64,000 nucleotides of DNA from Armatimonadota bacterium (GTDB lineage Bacteria; Armatimonadota; Zipacnadia; JAUWAU01): contig JAUWAU010000014.1 in NCBI GenBank assembly GCA_030601885.1, positions 68,774-132,773 of the forward strand, read 5' to 3'. Position 1 is the first letter of the stretch. Every line of letters begins with the position of its first letter. The notes under the pieces are model-generated. The model searched no databases. It was not told the DNA's origin and saw nothing but the letters and a program-made list of their open reading frames with translations. Shown here piece by piece: positions 1,986-23,744 of this stretch. The translations under genes were made by a program, and so were the position numbers.

Positions 1986-2909
1986 ATGCGAAACGTTGTC
2001 ATCCTCGGCTCAGGCTGCGCTGGCCTGACGTCAGCCATATACACGGCGCGGGCGAACCTGGAGCCGCTCGTGATCTCGGGGGCCGAGCCGGGCGGGCAGC
2101 TCGCGCTCACAACCGATGTGGAGAACTACCCGGGCTTCAAGGAGGGCGTCCTTGGGCCGGCACTGATGCAGGAAATGAGGGAGCAGGCAGCTCGCTTTGG
2201 GGCGGAGTTCGTGTCCGATGACGCCCACGCCGTTGATCTGAGCCCGCGTCCCTTCGTCGTCGAAGCTGGCGACGGGCGGCACGAAGCCAAGGCGCTCATC
2301 ATCGCCACGGGCGCATCGGCCCGGTTTGTCGGGTTGGAGTCGGAGCGAAAGCTCATCGGCCACGGCGTCTCCACCTGCGCCACATGCGACGGCTTCTTCT
2401 TCCGCGACCAGGAGATCGTGGTCGTCGGCGGCGGCGATTCCGCCATGGAGGAGTCCAACTTCCTCACCAAATTCGCCAGCAAGGTGACCGTCATTCACCG
2501 GCGCGACGAGCTCCGGGCCTCCAAGATCATGCAAGGCCGCGCCTTCAGGAACGAGAAGATCGAGTTCATCTGGGATACGGTCGTCGAGGAGATCATGGAC
2601 GTCGAAAAGGGCGAGGTGACGGGAGTAAAGCTACGCAACGTAAAGACGGACGAGGTCTCCGAGTTCCCCTGCAGGGGGGTGTTCCTCGCCATCGGGCACA
2701 TCCCCAACACGCAGCTACTCGAGGGACAGCTAGAGCTGGATCAGGCCGGCTACATCGTCGTGCACGATCATACGAAGACGAGCGTCGAAGGCGTTTTCGC
2801 CGCCGGCGATGTGCAGGACTATGTGTATCGCCAGGCCGTCACGGCCGCCGGCAGCGGCTGCATGGCGGCGATAGATGTGGAGCGGTATCTCCAGGGGCTA
2901 GAGGGGTGA
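1986..2909 (+). CDS. trxB: Thioredoxin-disulfide reductase
   Basis: GSGCAG FAD motif, GGQL..T..VENYPG, redox CATCDG, GGGDSAMEE, HRR, GVFAAGDV..YRQAVTAAG.GC; RBS GGAGG upstream. Confidence 0.97.
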   Translation: MRNVVILGSGCAGLTSAIYTARANLEPLVISGAEPGGQLALTTDVENYPGFKEGVLGPALMQEMREQAARFGAEFVSDDAHAVDLSPRPFVVEAGDGRHEAKALIIATGASARFVGLESERKLIGHGVSTCATCDGFFFRDQEIVVVGGGDSAMEESNFLTKFASKVTVIHRRDELRASKIMQGRAFRNEKIEFIWDTVVEEIMDVEKGEVTGVKLRNVKTDEVSEFPCRGVFLAIGHIPNTQLLEGQLELDQAGYIVVHDHTKTSVEGVFAAGDVQDYVYRQAVTAAGSGCMAAIDVERYLQGLEG

Positions 2910-2916
2910 CGCTGCG

Positions 2917-3045
2917 TTGGCGTTTCTGGGGCCCATTGGATTGCAGGAGCTGCTGATTCTATTCCTGATACTTGTGCTTCTCGCGGGGCCGGCACTGGGC
3001 GTTGCGGTACTGCTGTACTTCCTACTGCGCAAGCCGCGCCGCTGA
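2917..3045 (+). CDS. Small membrane protein (42 aa) with TatA-like N-terminus; not in ORF track
   Basis: TTG start after GAGGGG; MAFLGPIGLQELLILFLILVLLAGPALGVAVLLYFLLRKPRR, hydrophobic with basic tail. Confidence 0.65.
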   Translation: MAFLGPIGLQELLILFLILVLLAGPALGVAVLLYFLLRKPRR

Positions 3046-3124
3046 ATTCTGGGTCCCGCAACTCCCTGCGAGGCTTCCCGCGGCGGGTGCACGCCTTCAT
3101 GCCGACTGAGCAGGAGTGCAAATC

Positions 3125-3229
3125 GTGGCAATCGGGCTTTTCGGCTCGGTGATCCTCGGAGTACTTGTCGTGCTGGTCGCCGCCGCAGGGCTAGTGGTGT
3201 ACTTGCTGTACCGCAAGCCGACACAGTAG
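3125..3229 (+). CDS. Small membrane protein (34 aa); not in ORF track
   Basis: AGGAG at 3112-3116, GTG start; MAIGLFGSVILGVLVVLVAAAGLVVYLLYRKPTQ. Confidence 0.65.
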   Translation: MAIGLFGSVILGVLVVLVAAAGLVVYLLYRKPTQ

Positions 3230-3252
3230 CGCGGGGCTGCGATGGCGGCGGC

Positions 3253-3894
3253 TCAGCGCCGGCCGGGGCGGTCCGCCTTGCGCGCCCGTTCTCTCGCGTC
3301 CTGGTCGCTATCGTCTTCGGCTTGCTCCTCGTCAGACTCCAGGTGCGGCGCCAGGATGCGCGCATAGTCGTTGATCATCTCGTAGTAATGCCCATGTCGG
3401 GAGAGCACGTAGAACTGATAGAGGACGCCGAGCACGATGAGCATCATGCCCTGTCCGAGAGTGCCGCCCAGGAGGACATCGCCGATGGCGGCCACACCGA
3501 TCCCAGCGCCCAGCACCGAGACCGCTGACGCCGTCTTCAGCACCCGCGCCCGAACGAATGCCCCGTGAGGGTTCTCCGGCGTCTCGAGGGCCCCCGTCGC
3601 CCTCTGTTCCTCCGCTGCCGCAGCCAGTCGCGCCGCTACCCGGGCGAGCCGCTCCGGGTTCAGCGCATAGCCGTCAATGGCGAAGCCCAGCAGGAAGAAG
3701 CCCGCAGCGATGGCGAGGAACAACTCCAGGACGTTCTCGACTTGGATCTCTGACAGCTCTCGGGGCGGAACGGAGCGGCCCGCGATGACGGTGAGCACCA
3801 GTGCGGCGACGATGGGGATGACGCCCCAGTAGAGCCACCGATGTACGATCAGTCGTTTTGCCGTGCCGGCATCAATAATGGCCTCTTCGGACAT
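3253..3894 (-). CDS. Hypothetical integral membrane protein (about 4 TM)
   Basis: Hydrophobic segments in ORF 3253..4236; the promoter at 3950-3978 means the real start is downstream of it (ATG 3894 or 3909). Confidence 0.75.
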   Translation of the reverse strand: MSEEAIIDAGTAKRLIVHRWLYWGVIPIVAALVLTVIAGRSVPPRELSEIQVENVLELFLAIAAGFFLLGFAIDGYALNPERLARVAARLAAAAEEQRATGALETPENPHGAFVRARVLKTASAVSVLGAGIGVAAIGDVLLGGTLGQGMMLIVLGVLYQFYVLSRHGHYYEMINDYARILAPHLESDEEQAEDDSDQDARERARKADRPGRR

Positions 3895-5633: not shown

Positions 5634-6536
5634 ATGGTAAACTACACTCTACACCGCGACATCGTGTACAAGCATGCCGACGACGTGGACATCGCCCTGG
5701 ACGTCTACGAGCCGCCCGGCGAGGCGCCCCGCCCGGCGATGCTCTACTTCCACGGCGGAGCGTTGATGCGCGGCAGCAAACGGATGAACGACATGCACCG
5801 CGATAGGTTCATCAACTGGGGATATGCGCTTGTATCGGCCAACTACCGCCTCGCGCCGGAAGCGAAGTGGCCCGCTTTCCGGGACGACATGCTCGACGCT
5901 CACCGCTGGGTGCTGAATAACGGCGCCGAGTACAACATTGATCCGCAGCGGATCGGCGTTTTCGGCGATTCTGCCGGCGGCTACCTATCGCTGTTGCTCG
6001 GCGCGCTCGCCCGGCCTCGGCCGCGCGTCGTGGTACCGTTCTCCGGGTACGGCGACGTGGCCGGGCCCTGGTACAGTGAGCCGGATGCGTTCTATCTGAG
6101 CCGCAAGAGCGAAGATCCGGACAAGGTGCGCAAGTCCATCAGCGCGACGGTGCTCACCGAGTGCGCCGATGCGCTGAAGGGCGCCTTCTATCGCTACTGC
6201 CGGCAGCACGGCCTGTGGCCGAAAGAGGTCATAGGATTCCATCCGTCGGAGCGCCCCGACATCTTCGAGCAGGCCTGCCCCGAGCGCCTCGTCACGCCGG
6301 ACTACCCGCCCACCTTCCTGATGCACGGCACGAACGACACCGATGTGCCTTTTGCGCGCGCCGAGAGCATGTACGACGCGCTCCAGCGCAATGGCGTCGA
6401 ATCGGCCCTTGCTGCCATCGAGGGCGGCCCCCACGGCTGCATCCACAAGCAGGTGAACTGGCCGGGCCCGGACGAGCCGCAAGTCAGCGCCGCCCTCAAC
6501 GACCTCCGTGAATTCTTAGAAAGCCACCTGGCATAG
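5634..6536 (+). CDS. Alpha/beta hydrolase (esterase/lipase, HSL-like)
   Basis: HGG oxyanion motif, YRLAPE, nucleophile GDSAGG, HGTNDTDVP, GPHG. Confidence 0.9.
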   Translation: MVNYTLHRDIVYKHADDVDIALDVYEPPGEAPRPAMLYFHGGALMRGSKRMNDMHRDRFINWGYALVSANYRLAPEAKWPAFRDDMLDAHRWVLNNGAEYNIDPQRIGVFGDSAGGYLSLLLGALARPRPRVVVPFSGYGDVAGPWYSEPDAFYLSRKSEDPDKVRKSISATVLTECADALKGAFYRYCRQHGLWPKEVIGFHPSERPDIFEQACPERLVTPDYPPTFLMHGTNDTDVPFARAESMYDALQRNGVESALAAIEGGPHGCIHKQVNWPGPDEPQVSAALNDLREFLESHLA

Positions 6537-6585
6537 CTGCTCGCCTCGCGGGGCAGGCTGCCGTCTCGAAAGCTGGTGACGTTGC

Positions 6586-7851
6586 GTGGAGTTCGACCAG
6601 ATGATTGAATCGCTCGACCTGCGAGACCACGAGGAGGTGTTGCGCCCCGGATGGAAGGCCTCCCAGGAGTCGCTTCCTCCCGATGCGCTTCGGTTTCTCG
6701 ACGGCGATTTCTTCGCCGAAGCCTGTCGTATGGTCAGCCTCAGCGAGGACGCCCGGCCATCTCTGCAGACGACGGCGGACCAGATCGAGCAGAACCCGTC
6801 GCTTAGAAGTCTGGCGTGGCACTACCACCGCCTTCTGTTCACGAGCACTCCGGATACGCGCCCCGACGTGTTCTCGTGGCCCGCCCTGGAGAACGTGCTG
6901 GGCGATGCGGCGGGGACGTTCTATCTGATCGTTGCTCTATCGGGCTTGCCGGGGGCGCAGGCATTCCACACAGCCCGCGAGATCCCTGAGGACATATTGC
7001 GGGACACCTACGCGGACGCAGCTCTGTGGGCCAACGAATGGCACAAGGCGCACGGGGTTTGGGGGATGGAGAGGAGAATAGTACGCTGGGTCACCAATCA
7101 CTTCGTTGGCGATCTGTATCGGCTGAATCGGCTCCAGTTCATGCAACGGCCCTTCCGCGGGTCGCTGCAGGCGTTTCGTCACGTGGATACGGGCGAGGTG
7201 CTCGCCGTGGCCGAAGACGGCATCCGCTTTCGGTCAGACGGCCAAATGGACGGCGCGGGGGAGGTCTACGACCCGGAAGGAGCCTGGACGTCGCACCTGG
7301 AGGTCACCGAGGAGGGCGTCAGGGGCAATCCCCTCGATCCCGCCGGTAAGGCTGTCTCTTCGGAGGTGTTTCTGCCCGCTGATCGGTGGAAGCCGGCGCT
7401 GAGGCGCGGCGACCCCATGCTGGAGATGCACATCCCAGCGAACGGCCCCATGGCCTTCGATGCCTGTGGCGACTCGCTCCGCCGCGCGCTGGGGTTCTTC
7501 CCGCGCTACTTCCCCGATCGCCCCTTCCTGGGTTTCTGCTGCACGTCCTGGACGCTCGACACACAGCTCTGCGACCTGCTGCCGCCCTCGTCTAACCTGG
7601 TGCGCTTCATGCGGGAGTTCCACTGCTACCCGATCCTCACCAGTGGCCGGCAGACCTTCGAGCGCGCCTTCGGCGGCGTTCCCGACGACGTACGGGACCT
7701 GCCGCGCGATACCGCCCTGCGGCGGCTGCTGGTGGATCATCTGCTGGCCGGCGGGCACACGCGGTCCGGGGGGATATTCCTGCTGACCGAGGACCTCCAC
7801 TGGGGGACGCAGGTATACCTCACGCAGCAGCGAAGCCTGCCCATCGCATGA
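6586..7851 (+). CDS. Acyltransferase-domain protein (N-acyltransferase N-terminal plus GNAT-like C-terminal)
   Basis: LYRLNRLQF, L.MHIP..GP, F.C.SW.LD, LP..SN...F motifs typical of this family. Confidence 0.7.
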   Translation: MEFDQMIESLDLRDHEEVLRPGWKASQESLPPDALRFLDGDFFAEACRMVSLSEDARPSLQTTADQIEQNPSLRSLAWHYHRLLFTSTPDTRPDVFSWPALENVLGDAAGTFYLIVALSGLPGAQAFHTAREIPEDILRDTYADAALWANEWHKAHGVWGMERRIVRWVTNHFVGDLYRLNRLQFMQRPFRGSLQAFRHVDTGEVLAVAEDGIRFRSDGQMDGAGEVYDPEGAWTSHLEVTEEGVRGNPLDPAGKAVSSEVFLPADRWKPALRRGDPMLEMHIPANGPMAFDACGDSLRRALGFFPRYFPDRPFLGFCCTSWTLDTQLCDLLPPSSNLVRFMREFHCYPILTSGRQTFERAFGGVPDDVRDLPRDTALRRLLVDHLLAGGHTRSGGIFLLTEDLHWGTQVYLTQQRSLPIA

Positions 7852-16864: not shown

Positions 16865-17824
16865 CTAGGCGCCCACGGCACTGCGTGCGCGGTCAAGCGT
16901 CTCTCGTGCCTCGGCACGGGCCTTCTCGGCTCCCGCCTTCAGAACGTCGCGGACGTAGTCCGGGTCGGCCTCCAGCTCTGCCCGCCGTTGGCGCTGCGGG
17001 GCGAAGTACTCTATGATGGTCGCGAGCAGCTTCTGCTTGGCCTCGGCGTAGCCGATGTCACCCTTGCGATAGCGCTCCGCGACGGCCTCCCGGTCCTCGT
17101 CCGCCGCGAACAGCTTATACAGGTTGTACACGTTGCAGCTCTCCGGATCCTTCGGCTCCTCAACCCGCCGCGAATCTGTCTTGACGCTCATGACCTGGCG
17201 CTTGAGCTCGTCCGGCTCTTCGAAGATGAGTATCGCATTGCCGTAGCTCTTGGACATCTTGCGCCCATCGGTCCCGTTGACGACGGCCACGTCTGCCAGG
17301 ATATGGGCCTCCGGCAGCTTGAACACCTCACCAAACGTGCTGTTGAACTTAGTGGCGATGTCCCGGGTCACCTCGACGTGCTGTTTCTGGTCCTGGCCAA
17401 CGGGTACCAGATCCGAGTTGTAGATCAGAATGTCCGCTGCCTGGAGAACCGGATAGGCGAAGAGGCCGTGGTCGGCGGGGATGCCTTCGGCCACCTTCTC
17501 CTTGTACGCCACGCATCGCTCCAGAAGGCCCATGGGCGTCACGGCCGAGAGCAGCCAGGTCAGCTCGGTTACCTCGGGAATGTCGGACTGCATAAACAAG
17601 GTGGCGCGATCCGGATCGATGCCGAGCGCTAACAGGTCCGTAGCCAGATCGAGGCAGTACCTGCGCAGCGTCGCGGCGTCGCGGATGCTCGTGAGGGCGT
17701 GGTAGTTGGCGATGAAGTAGAAGCCCTCGTGCTCCTGCTGCAGCGCGACGTACTGCTTGATGGCGCCGAAGTAGTTCCCGATGTGCACGGCGCCGGACGG
17801 TTGAATGCCTGACAATGCTCTCAT
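16865..17824 (-). CDS. trpS: Tryptophan--tRNA ligase
   Basis: [41 protein letters not shown]; start ATG 17824. Confidence 0.97.
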
Positions 17825-18093
17825 GGCTTGGCACCGTTCCTCAAGAGATAGCGGTGATTTCGGCGATTGGGGCAGGGGGGCCTTCTGCAAGGATCATGGG
17901 GAACAGGATGGGGAGGCTGGGAATACGGCCGGAGGGGAAGGGTTGAGGGGACGGGGGCCGGTTGACAAGAAATGGGTATTATGTCCGCGGAATGACGGAA
18001 TCATGTCCCCGGAATTCAAAGATGCGCTAGTGCTATCCCCCGAATGCGGAATCTCTGGCGCCTCTTGCGCTCTCGCAGTCGCCCTGTTGACAC

Positions 18094-18573
18094 CTACCTC
18101 TTATACGTGGCCCAAGGATTCTGTTTCTTTCGTTTGCCTGCAAGTTCGGCTGCTTGCCCTATCCACCTCGCCAGACTGTCTTTGCTGGTATACTTGTATG
18201 CTTTGAAACCATTGGCTCTGATCTTCGGCGGAATCGCTCCCGGAGAACCAGTGTTCCCATTCTGGTCCTTTAGGTGATGAATCCGGACCGCCACAAGGCC
18301 GTTTCCTCGTTCCAAAGACTTGTCGATTTCGTAATTGATGTACTTCCTATCCGCAGTGCCGCGTGTAACACATACGACTGTAACGGATGTGTTCCGAAGC
18401 GCTTTGTCAATCATCGCTTTGATCTGCTTGTCTCCTTTCTTCTTGGCCTCTTCCCACAAGGAAGCATCTTGAAATCCCGCCGCGGCGGTGCCGATGATGT
18501 TGGGGATGCTTCGGACTTGGTTGACCTTCCACACATGCTTGTAATGGAAGCTGAAGAATACGCGTCGAGCCAT
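18094..18573 (-). CDS. TIR-domain protein, Thoeris ThsB/DUF1863-like
   Basis: MARRVFFSFHY..W.VNQVR, GF.DASLWEEAK, TSVTVV, T..RKYINYEI..S..RGNGL with catalytic Glu; RBS GGAGGAGG. Confidence 0.9.
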   Translation of the reverse strand: MARRVFFSFHYKHVWKVNQVRSIPNIIGTAAAGFQDASLWEEAKKKGDKQIKAMIDKALRNTSVTVVCVTRGTADRKYINYEIDKSLERGNGLVAVRIHHLKDQNGNTGSPGAIPPKIRANGFKAYKYTSKDSLARWIGQAAELAGKRKKQNPWATYKR

Positions 18574-18590
18574 CGTCCTCCTCCTTCCGA

Positions 18591-19001
18591 TTAGCGCCAC
18601 GCCGCTGCGACGAAGGCCGTCCCCACAATGATGGCAATGTAGAGCCAGGCAATCGTCGGGGACAAGCACGAGGCCAACCACCGCACCTGGCTCCGGTAGG
18701 GCGATGTGTCCATCGTGAAGGGGTCGGTCTCCATCTCAGACAGCGCGGCGAGACGCACAGCCTTATACAGCTTCCGAAAGAGGCGCTCCTGTCTCAGGTA
18801 GTAGCCGTCTAGCCCCCAGAACACCATCGTGGGGACAAGCGCCACCACCATGTACTGCGGGCATGCATCCCTGCCCCCCAGCGCAAGGATCGCGGCTGCC
18901 ACAGTAACAGCCCAGCCCTTGTACACGAAGGAGTTCTGTGCAAGGCGGCCGATCACGGTTTGGATGAGCTCCAGGTGCCGCATCCTTGCCTCGATCATCA
19001 T
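18591..19001 (-). CDS. Small multi-TM membrane protein, putative TIR-associated effector
   Basis: HLELIQ.VI.RLA.NSF..KGW, FW.LDGYYL.QERLFR.LY; three hydrophobic helices; ends 17 nt upstream of the TIR start. Confidence 0.8.
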   Translation of the reverse strand: MMIEARMRHLELIQTVIGRLAQNSFVYKGWAVTVAAAILALGGRDACPQYMVVALVPTMVFWGLDGYYLRQERLFRKLYKAVRLAALSEMETDPFTMDTSPYRSQVRWLASCLSPTIAWLYIAIIVGTAFVAAAWR

Positions 19002-19078
19002 ACCCCCGTGGGCATCCTTCATAGCCACCCAACCACCTGCGTGGAAATCGCGTGCGCCGCGCCGCCGCGGACACCAGG

Positions 19079-21310
19079 TCAGTCGGGTCTTGGGACCTGG
19101 TTCTGGTGGGCCGCGGGGAGGAACTCGGTCACAAGCCTGTCGCGCTCAGCGAGGAAGGCATTCAGGTCGTAGTCCTGGTACTCGTCCGGGTTGTCAGCGA
19201 CATTGCGATCCAGCAGTCGTTCGCACACGGCATAGGCCACGATCTCCGCAAGGAGCACGCGGAACTGGGTCTTCTCCTGGCCCGGGAACTTCTCGGACTC
19301 CTTGCCCAGATAGCGGCAGACGGAAGGATGAAACGCGGCGATTTCCAGTGTGTTGCCACGCCATCGGGAGCGCTGGTTGCCGAGGTCGACAGGCTGAATG
19401 CTGATTGTGATGGGCTCGCCGGCGGGTGGGCGGCTGACGAGTTGGGTTTCGGCTCGTTCCTCGCCGACTACGGCGATGAGGCGGGCTTTCATATCAGGAT
19501 CGGGCATCGTGACCCGGAGGTAGCAGTCTGCAATGCCAAGGTTCTCCCGAGGCCGTAGAGTCGGGTTGCGTGGGATACGCACGTGCGGCGTGTCGCAGGT
19601 GAGCTCGACCGGGCGAGGATCGGCCGGGGAGCCAGAGTAGGGCGCGAGCAAACGGACGCGTTTCGGGCGTCGTGGGACGACGTTGTAGACCTTGTGCTGA
19701 AAACAGAGCTGCGCGATGTCTGCGTAGCTGTCCCGCTCCGATTCGAGGACCTTGACGGAAGCGGTGGCAACGATGGGATCAGCGCGGCCGGTCACGGCCG
19801 TTGCACGCGTCACCCGTGTGCCGCGGACCTCCCAGCCCGCCCTCAGAGTGTTGTCCCGATCAGGGTGAGGCTGGAGCTGAACCGAGTTCTTGCTGGTGCT
19901 GATGTCGTCGGTGTCGCACTCGATCCGCACAGTGCTTCCCGCGGTGATCTGCGGGTAGGCCGTCTCGCTGATGTCGAGCCAGAACCTCTGCCTGTGGCCC
20001 AGCAGGATCTTGGAGTAGGGCGGGCTGAGACAGAATCCCTTGCGTCGAAGGGCGCCCTCGATCTTGGTGGTCACGGGCTGGGTAGTCTCGTCCTCCTGCT
20101 GGTGGAAGCGCTGCATGAACTCCGTCGCGAGCCTCTCCAGGGCGTTCAGACGTCGACGAGTCTGCTGGCTCTCAACCTGGATCCGCTCGGACTCCTCCCG
20201 CCTGTGTTCCTCTTCGACGACCCGGCGCAAGTGCCGCAGCGCTTGCTCGAACAACGCCTCCACGAAGGGGTGGTCCTTACGGAGTCCGGTCTGCCGATGC
20301 TGGTCTAGGATCCCCCAAGGGTTTCTTTCCGTGTCCGGTGGCTCGCGCCGCTCGAAGCGTTCGTCGTAATCGTTCCAGAGGTCGTCGATGTAATCGCACT
20401 TCAGTGTGCCGAAGAACCGCTGGGCATGCGAGTCGCGCTCGAGCTCCGGGGCGAAGAACGTCGACTCATGCACAGCGCGCTTGGACATGACGAGGATGCC
20501 GCTCTCGCGGAACTTAGGTCGGGCGCCGCCGTTGAGCGGCTGCTTGGCGCGCTTGATGATGAGCTTGGCCTGGGCCTCCGGGTAGCCGGGGATCCGCAGT
20601 TGCTCCTTGACGCGCTCTGTGCCCTTCGGGGGATGGTAGCGGATAGGGAGGTGCCGCTGCTTGTTGGAGTCGTGTAGCCACACATCCCTCTCCGGGTCGC
20701 TGAGGAGGCGGCGGAGAGGAACCAAAGTGCGGACTTTCTCGGCCATGGTGTCGTGTTGCTGTATCGTTGGCCGCCGCCGGGTCGTGGGGTCGATCTCCAG
20801 CGTCACGAGGGTACCTGTGCCTTCGGGGATGCCGAGGCGCTGCCGAACGTCCGCCGTGGCGGGCGCCGGTGCGGCGGGACTGGTGAAGTCGCCCTGAGGG
20901 GTGATTCGGCAGGACGCGTATGTGTCGCCGCTCGCGATTGACTCGAATGTGACCGTTCCGAGGATGGCCACGTCCTTGGCGCCGCGCGAGTTGGTGCCGC
21001 GCACCGGGGCGCCATTTGCAAACCCGGAGTGCCGCCGGCTGCCGAGCTTCGCGAGTTTCTCCTGCATATCCTCATGGCTCATTCCGGTCGCGAAGTCGCG
21101 GACGCGGAGGACTGGCGAGGTGGCTCCGTGGTGGCGCTCGATTTCTATGTCGATGCGGCCAGCACCGCCCAGACGCGTGTACGCATCATCGGCATTGGTC
21201 ACCAGTTCGGTGATCGCATCGTAGATGTCTCTGATGGCCCATTGGGCGTTCTGCCTCCAGTACCGCGGGTCGCTAACGTCAAGGCGTTTCTGGATCGCGT
21301 CCGCTCCCAT
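19079..21310 (-). CDS. GHKL (MORC/HSP90-like) ATP-binding protein with beta-rich C-terminal domains
   Basis: AITELVTNADDA, VRDFATGMS, RGTNSRGAK, GTLVTL GHKL motifs; S5-like FFGTLKCDYID; C-terminal LEIAAFHP; RBS GGAGG before ATG 21310. Confidence 0.82.
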   Translation of the reverse strand: MGADAIQKRLDVSDPRYWRQNAQWAIRDIYDAITELVTNADDAYTRLGGAGRIDIEIERHHGATSPVLRVRDFATGMSHEDMQEKLAKLGSRRHSGFANGAPVRGTNSRGAKDVAILGTVTFESIASGDTYASCRITPQGDFTSPAAPAPATADVRQRLGIPEGTGTLVTLEIDPTTRRRPTIQQHDTMAEKVRTLVPLRRLLSDPERDVWLHDSNKQRHLPIRYHPPKGTERVKEQLRIPGYPEAQAKLIIKRAKQPLNGGARPKFRESGILVMSKRAVHESTFFAPELERDSHAQRFFGTLKCDYIDDLWNDYDERFERREPPDTERNPWGILDQHRQTGLRKDHPFVEALFEQALRHLRRVVEEEHRREESERIQVESQQTRRRLNALERLATEFMQRFHQQEDETTQPVTTKIEGALRRKGFCLSPPYSKILLGHRQRFWLDISETAYPQITAGSTVRIECDTDDISTSKNSVQLQPHPDRDNTLRAGWEVRGTRVTRATAVTGRADPIVATASVKVLESERDSYADIAQLCFQHKVYNVVPRRPKRVRLLAPYSGSPADPRPVELTCDTPHVRIPRNPTLRPRENLGIADCYLRVTMPDPDMKARLIAVVGEERAETQLVSRPPAGEPITISIQPVDLGNQRSRWRGNTLEIAAFHPSVCRYLGKESEKFPGQEKTQFRVLLAEIVAYAVCERLLDRNVADNPDEYQDYDLNAFLAERDRLVTEFLPAAHQNQVPRPD

Positions 21311-21339
21311 TGGCACGTCCTCCTTCCAGGACTCGCGGC

Positions 21340-21972
21340 CTACTCCAAGGACGGCCGCAGCATCTCGCAACGCTCGGCAAATGCCAAGACATCCGCATCA
21401 TTCACCAGTTCAGCGAGGTTCCTAAGGACAGTGAAGCGCTTCTCCCATATGTGATCCTCTGCATCCACACGACACCGAAGCAGTGCCGCGAGTTGGCCGA
21501 TTGGTGGTACGAAGGCCTCGGGAGCACCCAGGAAGTCGCAGAAGAGCTGGTTGTCCCGCACACGCTGGACGTGCCTGAGGGCGTCCTGGCGGTGGGTGCG
21601 CGGTGCTCGGCGGGACAGGTGCTCCTCAAGGCGCCGCTCGTTTCCGGCAACCCAGCGTACACCTTCCTGAGTGAGTTGCCATCCATCAGTGCTCACGTGG
21701 CCCCGGCCGGCTCTGGTCTTGCCAGCGCGCCCTTGGACGAACACGGCCCCGAAATCCCCCATGCGCAGCCGGATCAGATCCCTGCGCACGACTTCCTTGT
21801 CGGCGTGCTCGCGATGCTTCACCCACGAGAAGGCATCCTGCGCCAAGGCGAAGCAGCGCAGGGCAACGTCCTCTGTGTGGACGCGTCTGCCGGCCCCTCC
21901 CTCTACGAAGAGGGCGTACAGCACGATCTCCCAATTTCTGAGCAGCGATTCCACACTGGGTACCTTCCTCAA
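21340..21972 (-). CDS. Hypothetical protein, probable winged-helix DNA-binding domain
   Basis: EIVLYAL..GG....VHTEDVA..CF.LA...FSW....DKE.VRR.L and wing GWQLTQEG; overlaps the upstream gene stop by 4 nt. Confidence 0.7.
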   Translation of the reverse strand: MRKVPSVESLLRNWEIVLYALFVEGGAGRRVHTEDVALRCFALAQDAFSWVKHREHADKEVVRRDLIRLRMGDFGAVFVQGRAGKTRAGRGHVSTDGWQLTQEGVRWVAGNERRLEEHLSRRAPRTHRQDALRHVQRVRDNQLFCDFLGAPEAFVPPIGQLAALLRCRVDAEDHIWEKRFTVLRNLAELVNDADVLAFAERCEMLRPSLE

Positions 21973-22601
21973 GATCGCGTCCGGCGCTGGACCGCGTCAG
22001 TAGTGCTAATCTGAAGTTCCGACCACGTGCTTGCCATTGCGTCTGTGATGCGTTCCGGATGTGGCGCCCTGTAGTATCCCCGGCGGGGCGAGGTGATTAT
22101 GCCCCGCTCCTTCATCAGGCCCAACACGATATACACCTCGTACGCGGGAATGCTTGTCGTGTCGATCACAGCATCGGCGCGGAATTCAGATGCTCCGCGT
22201 GCTGCTGCGACTATAGCCTCCCCGATGCGCTGGTAGTGAGACCTCGGTACGCCCTGCTCGTACTCTGTGCGCTTGTCGCGCCTGAGTCCTATCTTCCTGA
22301 GCACGTCCCCTTGGACGAGGTACTTGGGGTAGCCGCGTCGGCCCTTCGGCCGACGCCGGCCGGGTGACGTCTGCTTCTCCGGGAGTGGCGTCGGGCCCCC
22401 GTCGAGTAGCGCGGTCGCGCGACGCGCGAGTGCGTCGGTCTCGCGGGCAAGACTATAGCAGAGGTCGCCTGCGTCCCACTCTTCGCGGCCGCCGTCTTTG
22501 ACCCACTCGGTGCTTGCGGTGAGAAGCAGATCGCGCACCATGCCCAGGGCCTCGACCGCGTCCCGCAGTGCGCCAGGGATAGCTGAGGAACCCATTGCCA
22601 C
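21969..22601 (-). CDS. Hypothetical protein with basic linker and C-terminal wHTH-like domain
   Basis: YPKY...D.L.KIG....EYEQ..P; PAYEVYIVLGLMKERGII...RRGYY; RBS GAAGGAG. Confidence 0.72.
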   Translation of the reverse strand: MAMGSSAIPGALRDAVEALGMVRDLLLTASTEWVKDGGREEWDAGDLCYSLARETDALARRATALLDGGPTPLPEKQTSPGRRRPKGRRGYPKYLVQGDVLRKIGLRRDKRTEYEQGVPRSHYQRIGEAIVAAARGASEFRADAVIDTTSIPAYEVYIVLGLMKERGIITSPRRGYYRAPHPERITDAMASTWSELQISTTDAVQRRTRS

Positions 22602-22637
22602 GTCTCCTTCTTCTCTGTTATCCTCTGTGCATCCGAT

Positions 22638-22691
22638 AGATCACATTCACTCTACTCTCCTCTATTATACACTATTCTGTGATCTCGTCAA
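22638..22691 (-). promoter_or_regulatory. Sigma-70 promoter TTGACG-N16-TATAAT with AGATCACA/TGTGATCT inverted repeat
   Basis: -35 at 22686-22691, -10 at 22664-22669; 8-bp arms at 22638-22645 and 22678-22685 bracket the -10. Confidence 0.72.
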
Positions 22692-22695
22692 GTGG

Positions 22696-22860
22696 TCAGC
22701 GAAAAAAGTGGCGAGCGGCGCATCTGTAGGCGTCGATGAAGGGCTCGTGCGCCAGGTCCCCCGCATCGGTCGGGGGGAAGCTGTAGATGCGGTCGGCGTG
22801 GGGGTGCATCAGGTCGGCGAAGACGGTCGTGTGTCCAGCCTGGGTCGATTGGGTGAGCAA
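22696..22860 (-). pseudogene. Degenerate N-terminal remnant of an ECF sigma factor (region 2)
   Basis: Manual translation LLTQSTQAGHTTVFADLMHPHADRIYSF...DAGDLAHEPFIDAYR resembles ECF L...AQ.GD..AF..L...Y..RIY.F...DAEDL.QE.FI.AYR. Confidence 0.55.
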
Positions 22861-23007
22861 CGGCACCGCGCCACAGTGAGCACCTGTGGTCCTCTGGCGC
22901 TACAAAGACGGCCAAAGGCGAAGACGAAGGCAGGCTGCGGAGGCGTGGAAGTGGTTGTCGCGATGGGGGCGAGCGGGAGACGAGGGCCGGGTGGGAGGGC
23001 TGAGGTC

Positions 23008-23072
23008 AGATTCCTCGTGAGAATCGTTGCCGGTCCTTGTGGAACCCCCAGCGGTTCTCGCTCGGAATGACA
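23008..23072. repeat. REP-like element AGATTCCTCG...CGCTCGGAATGACA with internal insertion
   Basis: Complementary arms ATTCC/GGAAT and characteristic GGAATGACA end; intergenic. Confidence 0.45.
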
Positions 23073-23189
23073 AATGGGGAGGATCTCGGCCATGAAGATT
23101 GGGCGGGGAGAGGAAGCTGGCGGGCGGGGTGGAAGATCAGAGGTCAGGTCCTGAGGACGTGACTGCTGGCGTGTCGGAGTGAGTTCGGC

Positions 23190-23744
23190 TTGAGACGGAG
23201 GATAACGCTGGTTGATGTCGCGAAGGTCGGCTGCCTGGTGGTGCTCATCGGCTACTGCGTCTTCGGCGGCGCAACGCTGCTGAGGCACGCGGCCGAGACC
23301 CGCCGCGCCGGCACATGCCTGAGCAATATGATCCAGCTCTATCGCGGGATGCGCATGCACGCCCTCGGGCAGAAGGGCGCGCTGCCCGTCGCGGAGAGCT
23401 GGGCCGATGCGCTCGTCAAACACAAGCTAATCCCGAACGAGCAGGTCCTGCACTGCCCAAAGGCCACCGGCCGGTACGGCTACGCGATGAACTCGCAGCT
23501 CGGCGGCGCTAACCTCGAGCGCATTGCCGAGCCCACCCAACGGGTGCTCCTGTTCGAATCGACGACCGACACCCGGAACGCCCACGATCGACTGGAAAGC
23601 ATCCCCGACGCGCTGCGACATCCCCGAGGCAATCACTATATGTTCGTTGACGGGCACGGAGAGTGGCTCCAAGAGGTGCCAAGAGTTGACGGCGAGAATC
23701 AGGGCCCACAAGAGCCGGCAGCCGAAGCAGAGGAGGACGGGTGA
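23190..23744 (+). CDS. Prepilin-like / H-X9-DG domain protein (DUF1559-like)
   Basis: MRRRITLVDV prepilin-like N-terminus with TM, CLSN..QL, CP....YGYAMN, RHPRGNHYMFVDGH. Confidence 0.8.
   Translation: MRRRITLVDVAKVGCLVVLIGYCVFGGATLLRHAAETRRAGTCLSNMIQLYRGMRMHALGQKGALPVAESWADALVKHKLIPNEQVLHCPKATGRYGYAMNSQLGGANLERIAEPTQRVLLFESTTDTRNAHDRLESIPDALRHPRGNHYMFVDGHGEWLQEVPRVDGENQGPQEPAAEAEEDG

Follow-up and report, generated by a model that had tools for sequence, protein, structure and literature searches.

The DNA analysed here, called the window below, is a stretch of 64,000 nt of contig JAUWAU010000014.1 (positions 68,774 to 132,773) in the Armatimonadota bacterium assembly GCA_030601885.1, and the subject of this study is a block of five genes, g1 to g5, on its minus strand. 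An earlier note, made by a model from the letters of the sequence alone, had reported five co-oriented, closely spaced genes and viewed them as a defence-like operon. Five minus-strand open reading frames (ORFs) are indeed found at this place. The first, g1 (21969-22601), is a 210-aa ORF whose family has no name; its C-terminal part may fold as a winged helix, and it forms the variable first gene of an ATPase cassette. It is followed by g2 (21340-21972), whose 210-aa product combines a winged helix at the N-terminus with a bundle of helices at the C-terminus and is the partner conserved beside the ATPase, and by g3 (19079-21310), which encodes a 743-aa GHL-type ATPase, if translation begins at the ATG behind a GGAAGGAGGA site; the frame also stays open as far as a possible alternative start, TTG at 21370. 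The block ends with g4 (18591-19028), encoding a 145-aa membrane protein that matches the PADLOC model PDC-M50A and is the presumed effector of a TIR pair, and g5 (18094-18573), encoding a 159-aa ThsB-type TIR protein, counted from the ATG behind GGAGGAGG and matched by the PADLOC ThsB and PDC-M50B models. The genes are as tightly spaced as had been stated: g1 and g2 overlap by 4 nt and the remaining intergenic gaps measure 29, 50, and 17 nt.

Upstream of g1 lies a predicted promoter-like site of the sigma-70 type (TTGACG-16 nt-TATAAT, 22664..22691, minus strand), which scores 11 of 12 positions, in agreement with the near-consensus promoter described before. A motif scan of positions 17500-23500 found four promoter-like sites vs. 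0.7 expected per shuffle; this one was the sole site on the minus strand, and neither a terminator-like site nor an internal promoter was predicted between the five genes. All five genes probably share one predicted promoter in the window. The -10 hexamer is bracketed by an 8-nt perfect inverted repeat, AGATCACA / TGTGATCT (22638-22645 and 22678-22685), a candidate operator of which one arm falls between the -35 and -10 hexamers and the second past the -10. The operator palindrome of the earlier note was thereby recovered, but it is not a contiguous palindrome, since 32 nt separate the arms. By a rough estimate, approximately 0.15 such 8-nt pairs are expected by chance in 141 nt, and the repeat therefore counts as suggestive. 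Either g1 or g2 may bind it, and the single promoter-like site together with the repeat points to possible shared autoregulation. The description of the block as more AT-rich than its flanks held in part. It applies to g5 (GC content 0.51; GC content at third codon positions, GC3, 0.60) and to the 99-nt leader (GC content 0.43), but not to g3 and g4, whose GC3 of 0.80 is flank-like (flanks 0.80-0.88); g1 and g2 have a GC3 of 0.73.

The g3 protein scored 24.4 bits against Pfam HATPase_c, under the cut-off of 26.4, and matched no PADLOC model at E ≤ 0.1. A search of PDB sequences with the profile of the ATPase gave nothing meaningful, the best result being a coiled-coil match at E 0.81. In the AlphaFold2 (AF2) model (predicted local distance difference test score, pLDDT, 87.3), residues ~12-375 form a Bergerat ATPase and an S5-like transducer, followed by coiled-coil helices, two Ig-like beta-sandwiches (~424-629, Z ~10), and a conserved helical C-terminal domain. 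For residues 12-375 the best structural matches were MORC3 (Z 20.4; 299 residues aligned, root-mean-square deviation 3.6), GRP94 (Z 20.3), MORC2 (Z 20.1), SMCHD1 (Z 19.4), and MutL (Z 18.2), and Foldseek gave E values of ~1e-11 to Hsp90, GyrB, MORC2, and MutL. As the top structural matches are tied, no GHL subfamily can be named for g3. Residues E35, N39, D41, D42, D72, and G76 were invariant in an alignment of 32 homologues; the conserved Glu and Asn we take to be motif I, and the Asp and Gly motif II, of GHL ATPases. Judged from the model, with its Bergerat fold, conserved residues, and S5-like transducer, g3 is a GHL ATPase, and the assignment to the GHKL ATPases made in the earlier note is borne out, with matches to MORC3, GRP94, MORC2, and SMCHD1 at Z 19-20.

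A word-indexed search retrieved 268 relatives of the ATPase, annotated without exception as hypothetical or ATP-binding and with source names from Planctomycetota, Zixibacteria, Acidobacteria, Gemmatimonadota, Rhodothermales, and Bacteroidota. The numbers of cluster representatives were 1498 at E ≤ 1e-3, 1175 at E ≤ 1e-10, and 660 at E ≤ 1e-30. Full-length matches are uniform in size (~720-780 aa), and no longer, fused forms were found, an absence that carries little weight. By these sequence matches the ATPase family is large and unnamed. Among 401 genomes of the phylum, a close relative occurs in one, the window's own, and distant ones in two more. Neither the plasmid collection (72,556 records) nor the phage collection (50,697 records) contained a match to the ATPase at E ≤ 1e-10; both are poor in environmental taxa. 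Distant relatives with 29-33% identity over the N-terminal part were seen in two Planctomycetota genomes, L005 (G016) and L006 (G156), where the open frames of the ATPase are 623 and 653 aa long. Just upstream of the ATPase in L005 lies a weak g2-like ORF (E 1e-4), and the g2-ATPase pairing may therefore predate the main family.

The AF2 model of g2 is well supported (pLDDT 90.5; predicted template-modelling score, pTM, 0.86). For residues 1-120, all 50 structural neighbours listed are winged-helix DNA binders (Z 7.9-9.6). At the sequence level g2 had no Pfam match, and its profile found PDB sequences at a best E of 1; Foldseek against PDB gave nothing at E ≤ 0.001, and no clear relative of the C-terminal helical bundle was found. 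For g1 there was no Pfam, PHROG, or NCBIfam match. Residues 133-183 match AbiEi weakly (E 0.05) in the PADLOC search, and the Atlas placed g1 in unnamed clusters, the nearest named one being DUF4007 at 0.77, which is a lead only. Of the two winged helix-turn-helix genes proposed originally, the g2 assignment is thus supported by structure (Z 8-9.6), while that of g1 rests on the AbiEi match.

We compared gene order in 82 other ATPase loci, 2 from genomes and 80 kept of 390 metagenome loci; a single-protein scan of genome contigs yielded the two real ATPase loci only, plus one 29-residue chance match. Upstream DNA of 700 bp or more was available in 72 loci, and tblastn and hidden Markov model (HMM) searches showed g2 to be the gene immediately before the ATPase in 59 of them; the median distance from the end of g2 to the ATPase is 48 nt (64 loci). 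From this linkage we suppose that g2 may bind the ATPase. The 13 g2-negative loci include near-identical copies, and all those placed on the tree belong to one ATPase clade (L001, L002, L027/L029/L030, L039/L040/L042/L043, L058, L061, and L024), in which no replacement partner was recognised; this sub-family of the ATPase may stand alone. The first position is more variable. Of 55 loci with sufficient DNA upstream, 19 have a g1 homologue there by HMM, and ORF clustering put the g1 family in 20 loci; unrelated small genes take its place elsewhere, among them those for a 77-106-aa helical protein (5 loci), a protein with RHH and Mrr_N domains (5 loci; both members tested exceed the Pfam cut-off), and others. 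In L038, a DndB-like protein (2265-3503; Pfam DndB, 2.8e-11) is encoded directly upstream of g2.

The second half of the block could be assigned more closely. TM-like segments were seen in g4 and in no other protein of the block, in keeping with the earlier note: hydropathy shows two clear and one probable transmembrane (TM) segments. The g4 protein matches PDC-M50A (PDLC04686) at 3.8e-40, its residues 11-140 aligning with positions 1-128 of the 134-position profile; it also matches PHROG 19896 (4.6e-30). An alignment revealed an invariant basic motif, W-x-L-D-x-x-Y-L-x-x-E-R-L-x-R, after the second hydrophobic segment. No Pfam family was matched by g4 at E ≤ 0.1, and none is on record among the 120 listed of its 285 homologues; in the Atlas it falls into unnamed clusters, with RipA/8xMP PF24838 as the nearest named one at 0.86, a lead only. 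The g5 protein matches Pfam ThsB_TIR (1.3e-21; 77.3 bits, cut-off 21.2) and PDC-M50B (PDLC04688, 9.2e-41), and scores higher with the PADLOC ThsB model (PDLC00431, 4.3e-49), which confirms the ThsB-type TIR domain named in the earlier note. In an alignment of g5 and 13 TIRs from related loci, E82 (in Y-E-I), S8, H10, and R21 were invariant in 14 of 14 sequences, and E82 is presumably the catalytic Glu of the TIR domain. The aligned TIRs read H-Y-x-x-D, while g5 itself has H-Y-K-H-V.

Loci with the TM gene were collected from viral contigs (20) and from genomes (6 besides the window; 7 of the 401 genomes of the phylum including the window's own). A g5-like TIR gene adjoins the TM gene in 9 of the 20 viral and 4 of the 6 genome loci (13/26). 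In four further viral loci (L092, L093, L103, and L106) the neighbour is a Pfam-supported TIR of other families, in L094 and L102 it is a sub-threshold TIR_2, and in L090 and L100 it is unassigned. The two genes are found in either order. Matches to the TM protein were also obtained in 123 plasmid records, including 40 from Klebsiella and 36 from Escherichia; 81 of the 123 are conjugative. In both conjugative plasmids inspected, one from Klebsiella (L128, MOBF/MPF_F) and one from E. coli (L129, IncI), an annotated TIR gene adjoins the TM gene; on the Klebsiella plasmid the pair stands beside a DNA methylase gene.

By these matches the g4-g5 pair is of a known kind, a catalogued Thoeris-like PADLOC candidate: g4 corresponds to the A model and g5 to the B model of PDC-M50, in adjacent genes 17 nt apart. 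The pair in the window differs in that it follows an unrelated cassette and has no promoter-like site of its own. There are 145 PDCs, which were proposed through 'guilt by embedding' and which their authors present as untested (10.1101/2024.01.29.577857). The name PDC-M50 comes from the PADLOC match and was not found in our literature search. The statement that the combination is no named system therefore stands for the five genes together, but not for the TM+TIR half; PADLOC matched g4-g5 as PDC-M50 and gave nothing for the ATPase. Yirmiya et al. report 11 named and 29 putative Thoeris types, among them types with small TM effectors: type II (TM+Macro), type V (ThsF/DUF2270, 3 TM), and type VII (ThsH/SLATT) (10.64898/2025.12.03.692087). 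In E. coli, several TIR systems of two genes have been validated, and one of these includes a TM component (PMC11350192). The window pair resembles Thoeris in its ThsB-type TIR with the invariant Glu and in the small multi-TM partner that is conserved beside varied TIR families in either order. Assignment of g4 to a particular effector type failed in each case. An hhalign comparison of 36 g4 homologues with 7 DUF2270 proteins gave a probability of 0.7%, and a search of the window's own genome gave no PF10028 match; neither g4 nor the 120 listed homologues had a SIR2-SLOG, Macro, or SLATT Pfam match that would place them with the type I, II, or VII effectors. By analogy with Thoeris, g5 would make an ADP-ribose-derived signal that activates g4, and the pair would protect from phage.

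The central question is whether the two halves belong together, and the neighbourhoods indicate that they do not. Relatives of g4 or g5 were found in 0 of the 82 other ATPase loci; in 35 of these the ATPase is complete and is followed by 1100 bp or more of sequence. ORF clustering within 3.5 kb of the ATPase in these 82 loci recovered the g2 and g1-position families as the only conserved partners, with no gene family conserved downstream, and in 17 of 37 loci the first ORF after the ATPase is encoded on the other strand. Likewise, g1, g2, and the ATPase were found in 0 of the 26 other TM loci, and the ATPase-TM junction of the window is absent from every other locus examined. Since each pair, g2+ATPase and g4+g5, recurs elsewhere and the two never occur together in the loci examined, the halves are best regarded as separate recurrent units. 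Of the two possibilities left by the earlier note, these data favour two adjacent modules, while a single sensor-signal-effector pathway is not supported by co-occurrence. We consider it likely that the junction in the window joins two autonomous modules, g1-g2-g3 (module A) and g4-g5 (module B), stacked head to tail in a small accessory island.

Module A is undescribed: literature searches on GHKL and MORC proteins in defence, and PADLOC, gave no match to the g1-g2-g3 cassette. Its closest parallels lie among the MORC and paraMORC proteins, whose operons are reported to carry superfamily II (SFII) helicases, nucleases, and methylases (Iyer, Abhiman, Aravind 2008, PMC2292703). The same account describes paraMORC4 as a GHKL family fused to or adjacent to TIR domains with the motif Hx[ST]xD (PMC2292703). 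Like these proteins, g3 has an N-terminal GHKL and S5-like module with intact ATP-site residues, a sporadic distribution, and some restriction-modification neighbours. In contrast to them, its conserved partner is a winged-helix protein, no helicase, nuclease, or methylase is conserved nearby (82 loci), and its C-terminal part consists of two Ig-like domains and a helical domain, vs. a restriction-endonuclease-fold nuclease in paraMORC3 and a TIR in paraMORC4. Identity with paraMORC4 was rejected, as a TIR gene is adjacent in 0 of the 82 other loci and Hx[ST]xD is absent from g5 and its relatives. Two anti-phage GHL ATPases were also compared: Tiamat, described as an Hsp90-like ATPase with DUF3684 and a DUF3883 nuclease (10.64898/2026.09.30.754977), and GHKL-Shedu (VcSduA / paraMORC3, Shedu type I-D), described with a C-terminal DUF4263 PD-(D/E)xK nuclease (PMC12137116). 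With both, g3 shares a GHL ATPase head that is presumed to act as a dimeric clamp in a defence context. Yet Tiamat and GHKL-Shedu are presented in these sources as single-gene systems, whereas the g3 cassette has an obligate small partner. No DUF3684 or DUF3883 was detected in g3 at Pfam E ≤ 0.1 and no PADLOC model was matched, which speaks against Tiamat. Shedu was discarded as well: Pfam found no DUF4263, and residues 424-629 are Ig-like sandwiches, residues 630-743 not having been searched separately.

The surroundings of the ATPase cassette were scanned with PADLOC in 28 long loci (140 ORFs, E ≤ 1e-12). The neighbour types comprised type IIG and type IV restriction, type II Thoeris, CBASS with CapP, IetAS, Ppl, PDC-M21, PDC-S32, and HEC-09, with restriction genes near the ATPase in 2 of the 28 loci. 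Pfam searches of the flanks (150 of 183 ORFs) added toxin-antitoxin genes, HEPN/MNT, PIN, Panacea, an integrase, and transposases. In single loci, PDC-M21A/B lies downstream of the cassette on the same strand (L063, 8920-10123), IetA/IetS and HEC-09 are present (L045), or CBASS with CapP stands beside the cassette (L049). An enrichment of defence genes around the ATPase cassette is suggestive. We judge the chance that module A serves defence to be slightly better than even.

Several observations weigh against the reading of two autonomous modules with a defensive module A. Five sets of identical ATPase proteins involve 12 of the 82 loci, so the numbers of independent loci are lower than the counts given above. 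The 50-nt gap, the common strand, and the lack of a predicted terminator or internal promoter between g3 and g4 fit a single operon equally well, and functional coupling in the window is therefore possible. In L019, a complete type II Thoeris system (5957-7399; ThsB PDLC00421, 3.4e-74, and ThsA-Macro, 9.5e-99) follows the ATPase cassette on the same strand at a distance of 2.5 kb, and GHKL-TIR partnerships do exist, as paraMORC4 is described as fused to or next to TIR domains (PMC2292703). As for the defence role, PADLOC genes flank the ATPase in 9 of the 28 long loci, a raw count without background control, and Pfam showed housekeeping-only flanks in L017, L018, L021, and L067. Nor was a nuclease or other effector domain recognised in g1-g3 by Pfam, PADLOC, or fold search, g3 residues 630-743 not having been searched separately. 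One alternative is a single five-gene pathway, in which the winged-helix proteins and the ATPase would sense phage DNA and activate or license the TIR, whose signal would open the TM effector. The 17-50-nt gaps on one strand, the single promoter-like site, the paraMORC4 precedent, and the Thoeris genes of L019 all suit such a pathway. It is set against the mutual absence of the two halves from the 82 ATPase and 26 TM loci, the occurrence of TM+TIR alone on both inspected conjugative plasmids, the different composition of the TIR gene (GC3 0.60 vs. 0.80 in the ATPase), and the lack in g5 of the Hx[ST]xD motif of paraMORC4-linked TIRs, and we regard it as highly improbable.

The g1-g2-ATPase cassette might instead be a regulatory or sensor module for the immune operon downstream, like CapK/CapS, CapW, or CapH/CapP. 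The concept is reported for CapK/CapS, a small anti-sigma-type GHKL-fold kinase and a STAS-domain repressor encoded upstream of immune operons (PMC13373217), and here too a GHKL-fold protein and a DNA-binding protein are encoded upstream of an immune gene pair. Two DNA-binding proteins, an inverted repeat in the promoter, and same-strand downstream defence genes in the window, L012, L019, L045, and L063 agree with such a function. However, g3, at 743 aa and with its S5 transducer and Ig-like domains, is a GHL protein and no small anti-sigma-type kinase, and its partner g2 is a winged helix without a STAS domain. The genes downstream are moreover inconsistently immune: in addition to the 17 of 37 loci with the first downstream ORF on the opposite strand, housekeeping genes follow in L018 (rhomboid and RNase R) and L067 (GMP synthase and DnaE). 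This makes a regulatory module unlikely in our view. Less remote, and still doubtful, is a non-immune module A that would act in DNA topology, silencing, or maintenance of mobile islands, for instance as a MORC-like compaction factor with a DNA adaptor, and leave only module B defensive. The missing effector domain and PADLOC match, the 19 of 28 long loci without a PADLOC neighbour, and the integrase and transposases nearby in L039, L008, and L083 are in line with it. On the other side stand the patchy distribution across phyla, of the horizontal-transfer type, and the repeated restriction, CBASS, Thoeris, Iet, and Ppl neighbours. A plasmid or phage housekeeping role is further disfavoured by the lack of ATPase matches in the plasmid and phage records, with the restriction stated above that these are poor in environmental taxa.

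Under the preferred reading of two stacked modules, the following course can be proposed. In module A, the N-terminal ATPase domains of g3 would dimerise on ATP binding and close a clamp, by analogy with MORC, MutL, and Hsp90. The g2 protein would recruit or load g3 on DNA, or act as a client adaptor, and the first gene, here g1, would encode an interchangeable DNA-binding protein serving as autoregulator or as specificity factor at the promoter repeat. Given that no nuclease or killing domain was recognised in module A, the likeliest output would be ATP-driven clamping or compaction of target DNA rather than cleavage. In module B, the TIR protein g5 would sense infection and make an ADP-ribose-derived signal, as in Thoeris; g4 would bind this signal at its conserved basic cytoplasmic motif, oligomerise, and breach the membrane, in analogy to Thoeris types II, V, and VII, and the membrane damage would lead to abortive infection. 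Module B, which has no promoter-like site of its own, would ride on the promoter of module A, and the shared promoter would then be a local accident of island assembly, not functional coupling. Taken to its full extent, the proposal is that g2, the GHL ATPase, and an interchangeable DNA-binding gene form a new, nuclease-free anti-phage clamp or compactor, a counterpart of MORC/SMCHD1 silencing that is widespread in uncultivated bacteria from many phyla and in the window also supplies a promoter, with perhaps infection-responsive control, for TM+TIR. We offer this tentatively, as a possibility that falls clearly short of an even chance.

The island lies between a 341-aa ORF taken for trpS, with homologues in all 21 related genomes, and a 56-aa ORF (22696-22866, minus strand), which terminates 5 nt before the -35 hexamer of the island promoter-like site. 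The latter had been labelled a remnant of an extracytoplasmic function (ECF) sigma factor. We could not confirm this label: Pfam assigned no family to the ORF at E ≤ 0.1, and a search of its own genome for paralogues gave none at E ≤ 0.01. Neither a genome of the same genus (G401, 83% complete) nor one of the same order (G402) yielded a match to the island DNA (17891-22900). Both flanks were recovered in G401, with 86% amino-acid identity for trpS and 77% nucleotide identity for the right flank from window position 23213. The borders of the insertion cannot be drawn, because the flanks sit on different contigs there. These contigs (C305 end, L127; C333 start, L124) stop near the island junction, with different genes beyond, and the junction region in G401 appears variable or difficult to assemble. 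Two RNA runs from the study of the window gave no match to this stretch. Five short contig pieces in a DNA run of another sediment study fall within window positions 18915-21508, in the TM, ATPase, and g2 genes. Four of the five have at least 99% identity to the window, which suggests the same or a very close strain in a second sample; none bridges the ATPase-TM junction.

The finding bears on how such loci are read and on the roles of GHL ATPases in bacteria. The locus shows two modules under one predicted promoter in a small island and advises caution against reading tight operons as single systems. To the Thoeris-like pairs the window adds an example whose small effector belongs to no named family; relatives of this effector are common on Klebsiella and Escherichia plasmid records. 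As the TM+TIR half is already a catalogued candidate, the cassette of winged-helix protein and GHL ATPase is the part worth experiment. In the sources considered here, few GHL ATPases are described with an anti-phage role, and Tiamat and GHKL-Shedu both carry nucleases. If module A defends, this would mean immunity by DNA clamping or silencing, and the cassette would provide a simple bacterial model for MORC/SMCHD1-type ATPases.

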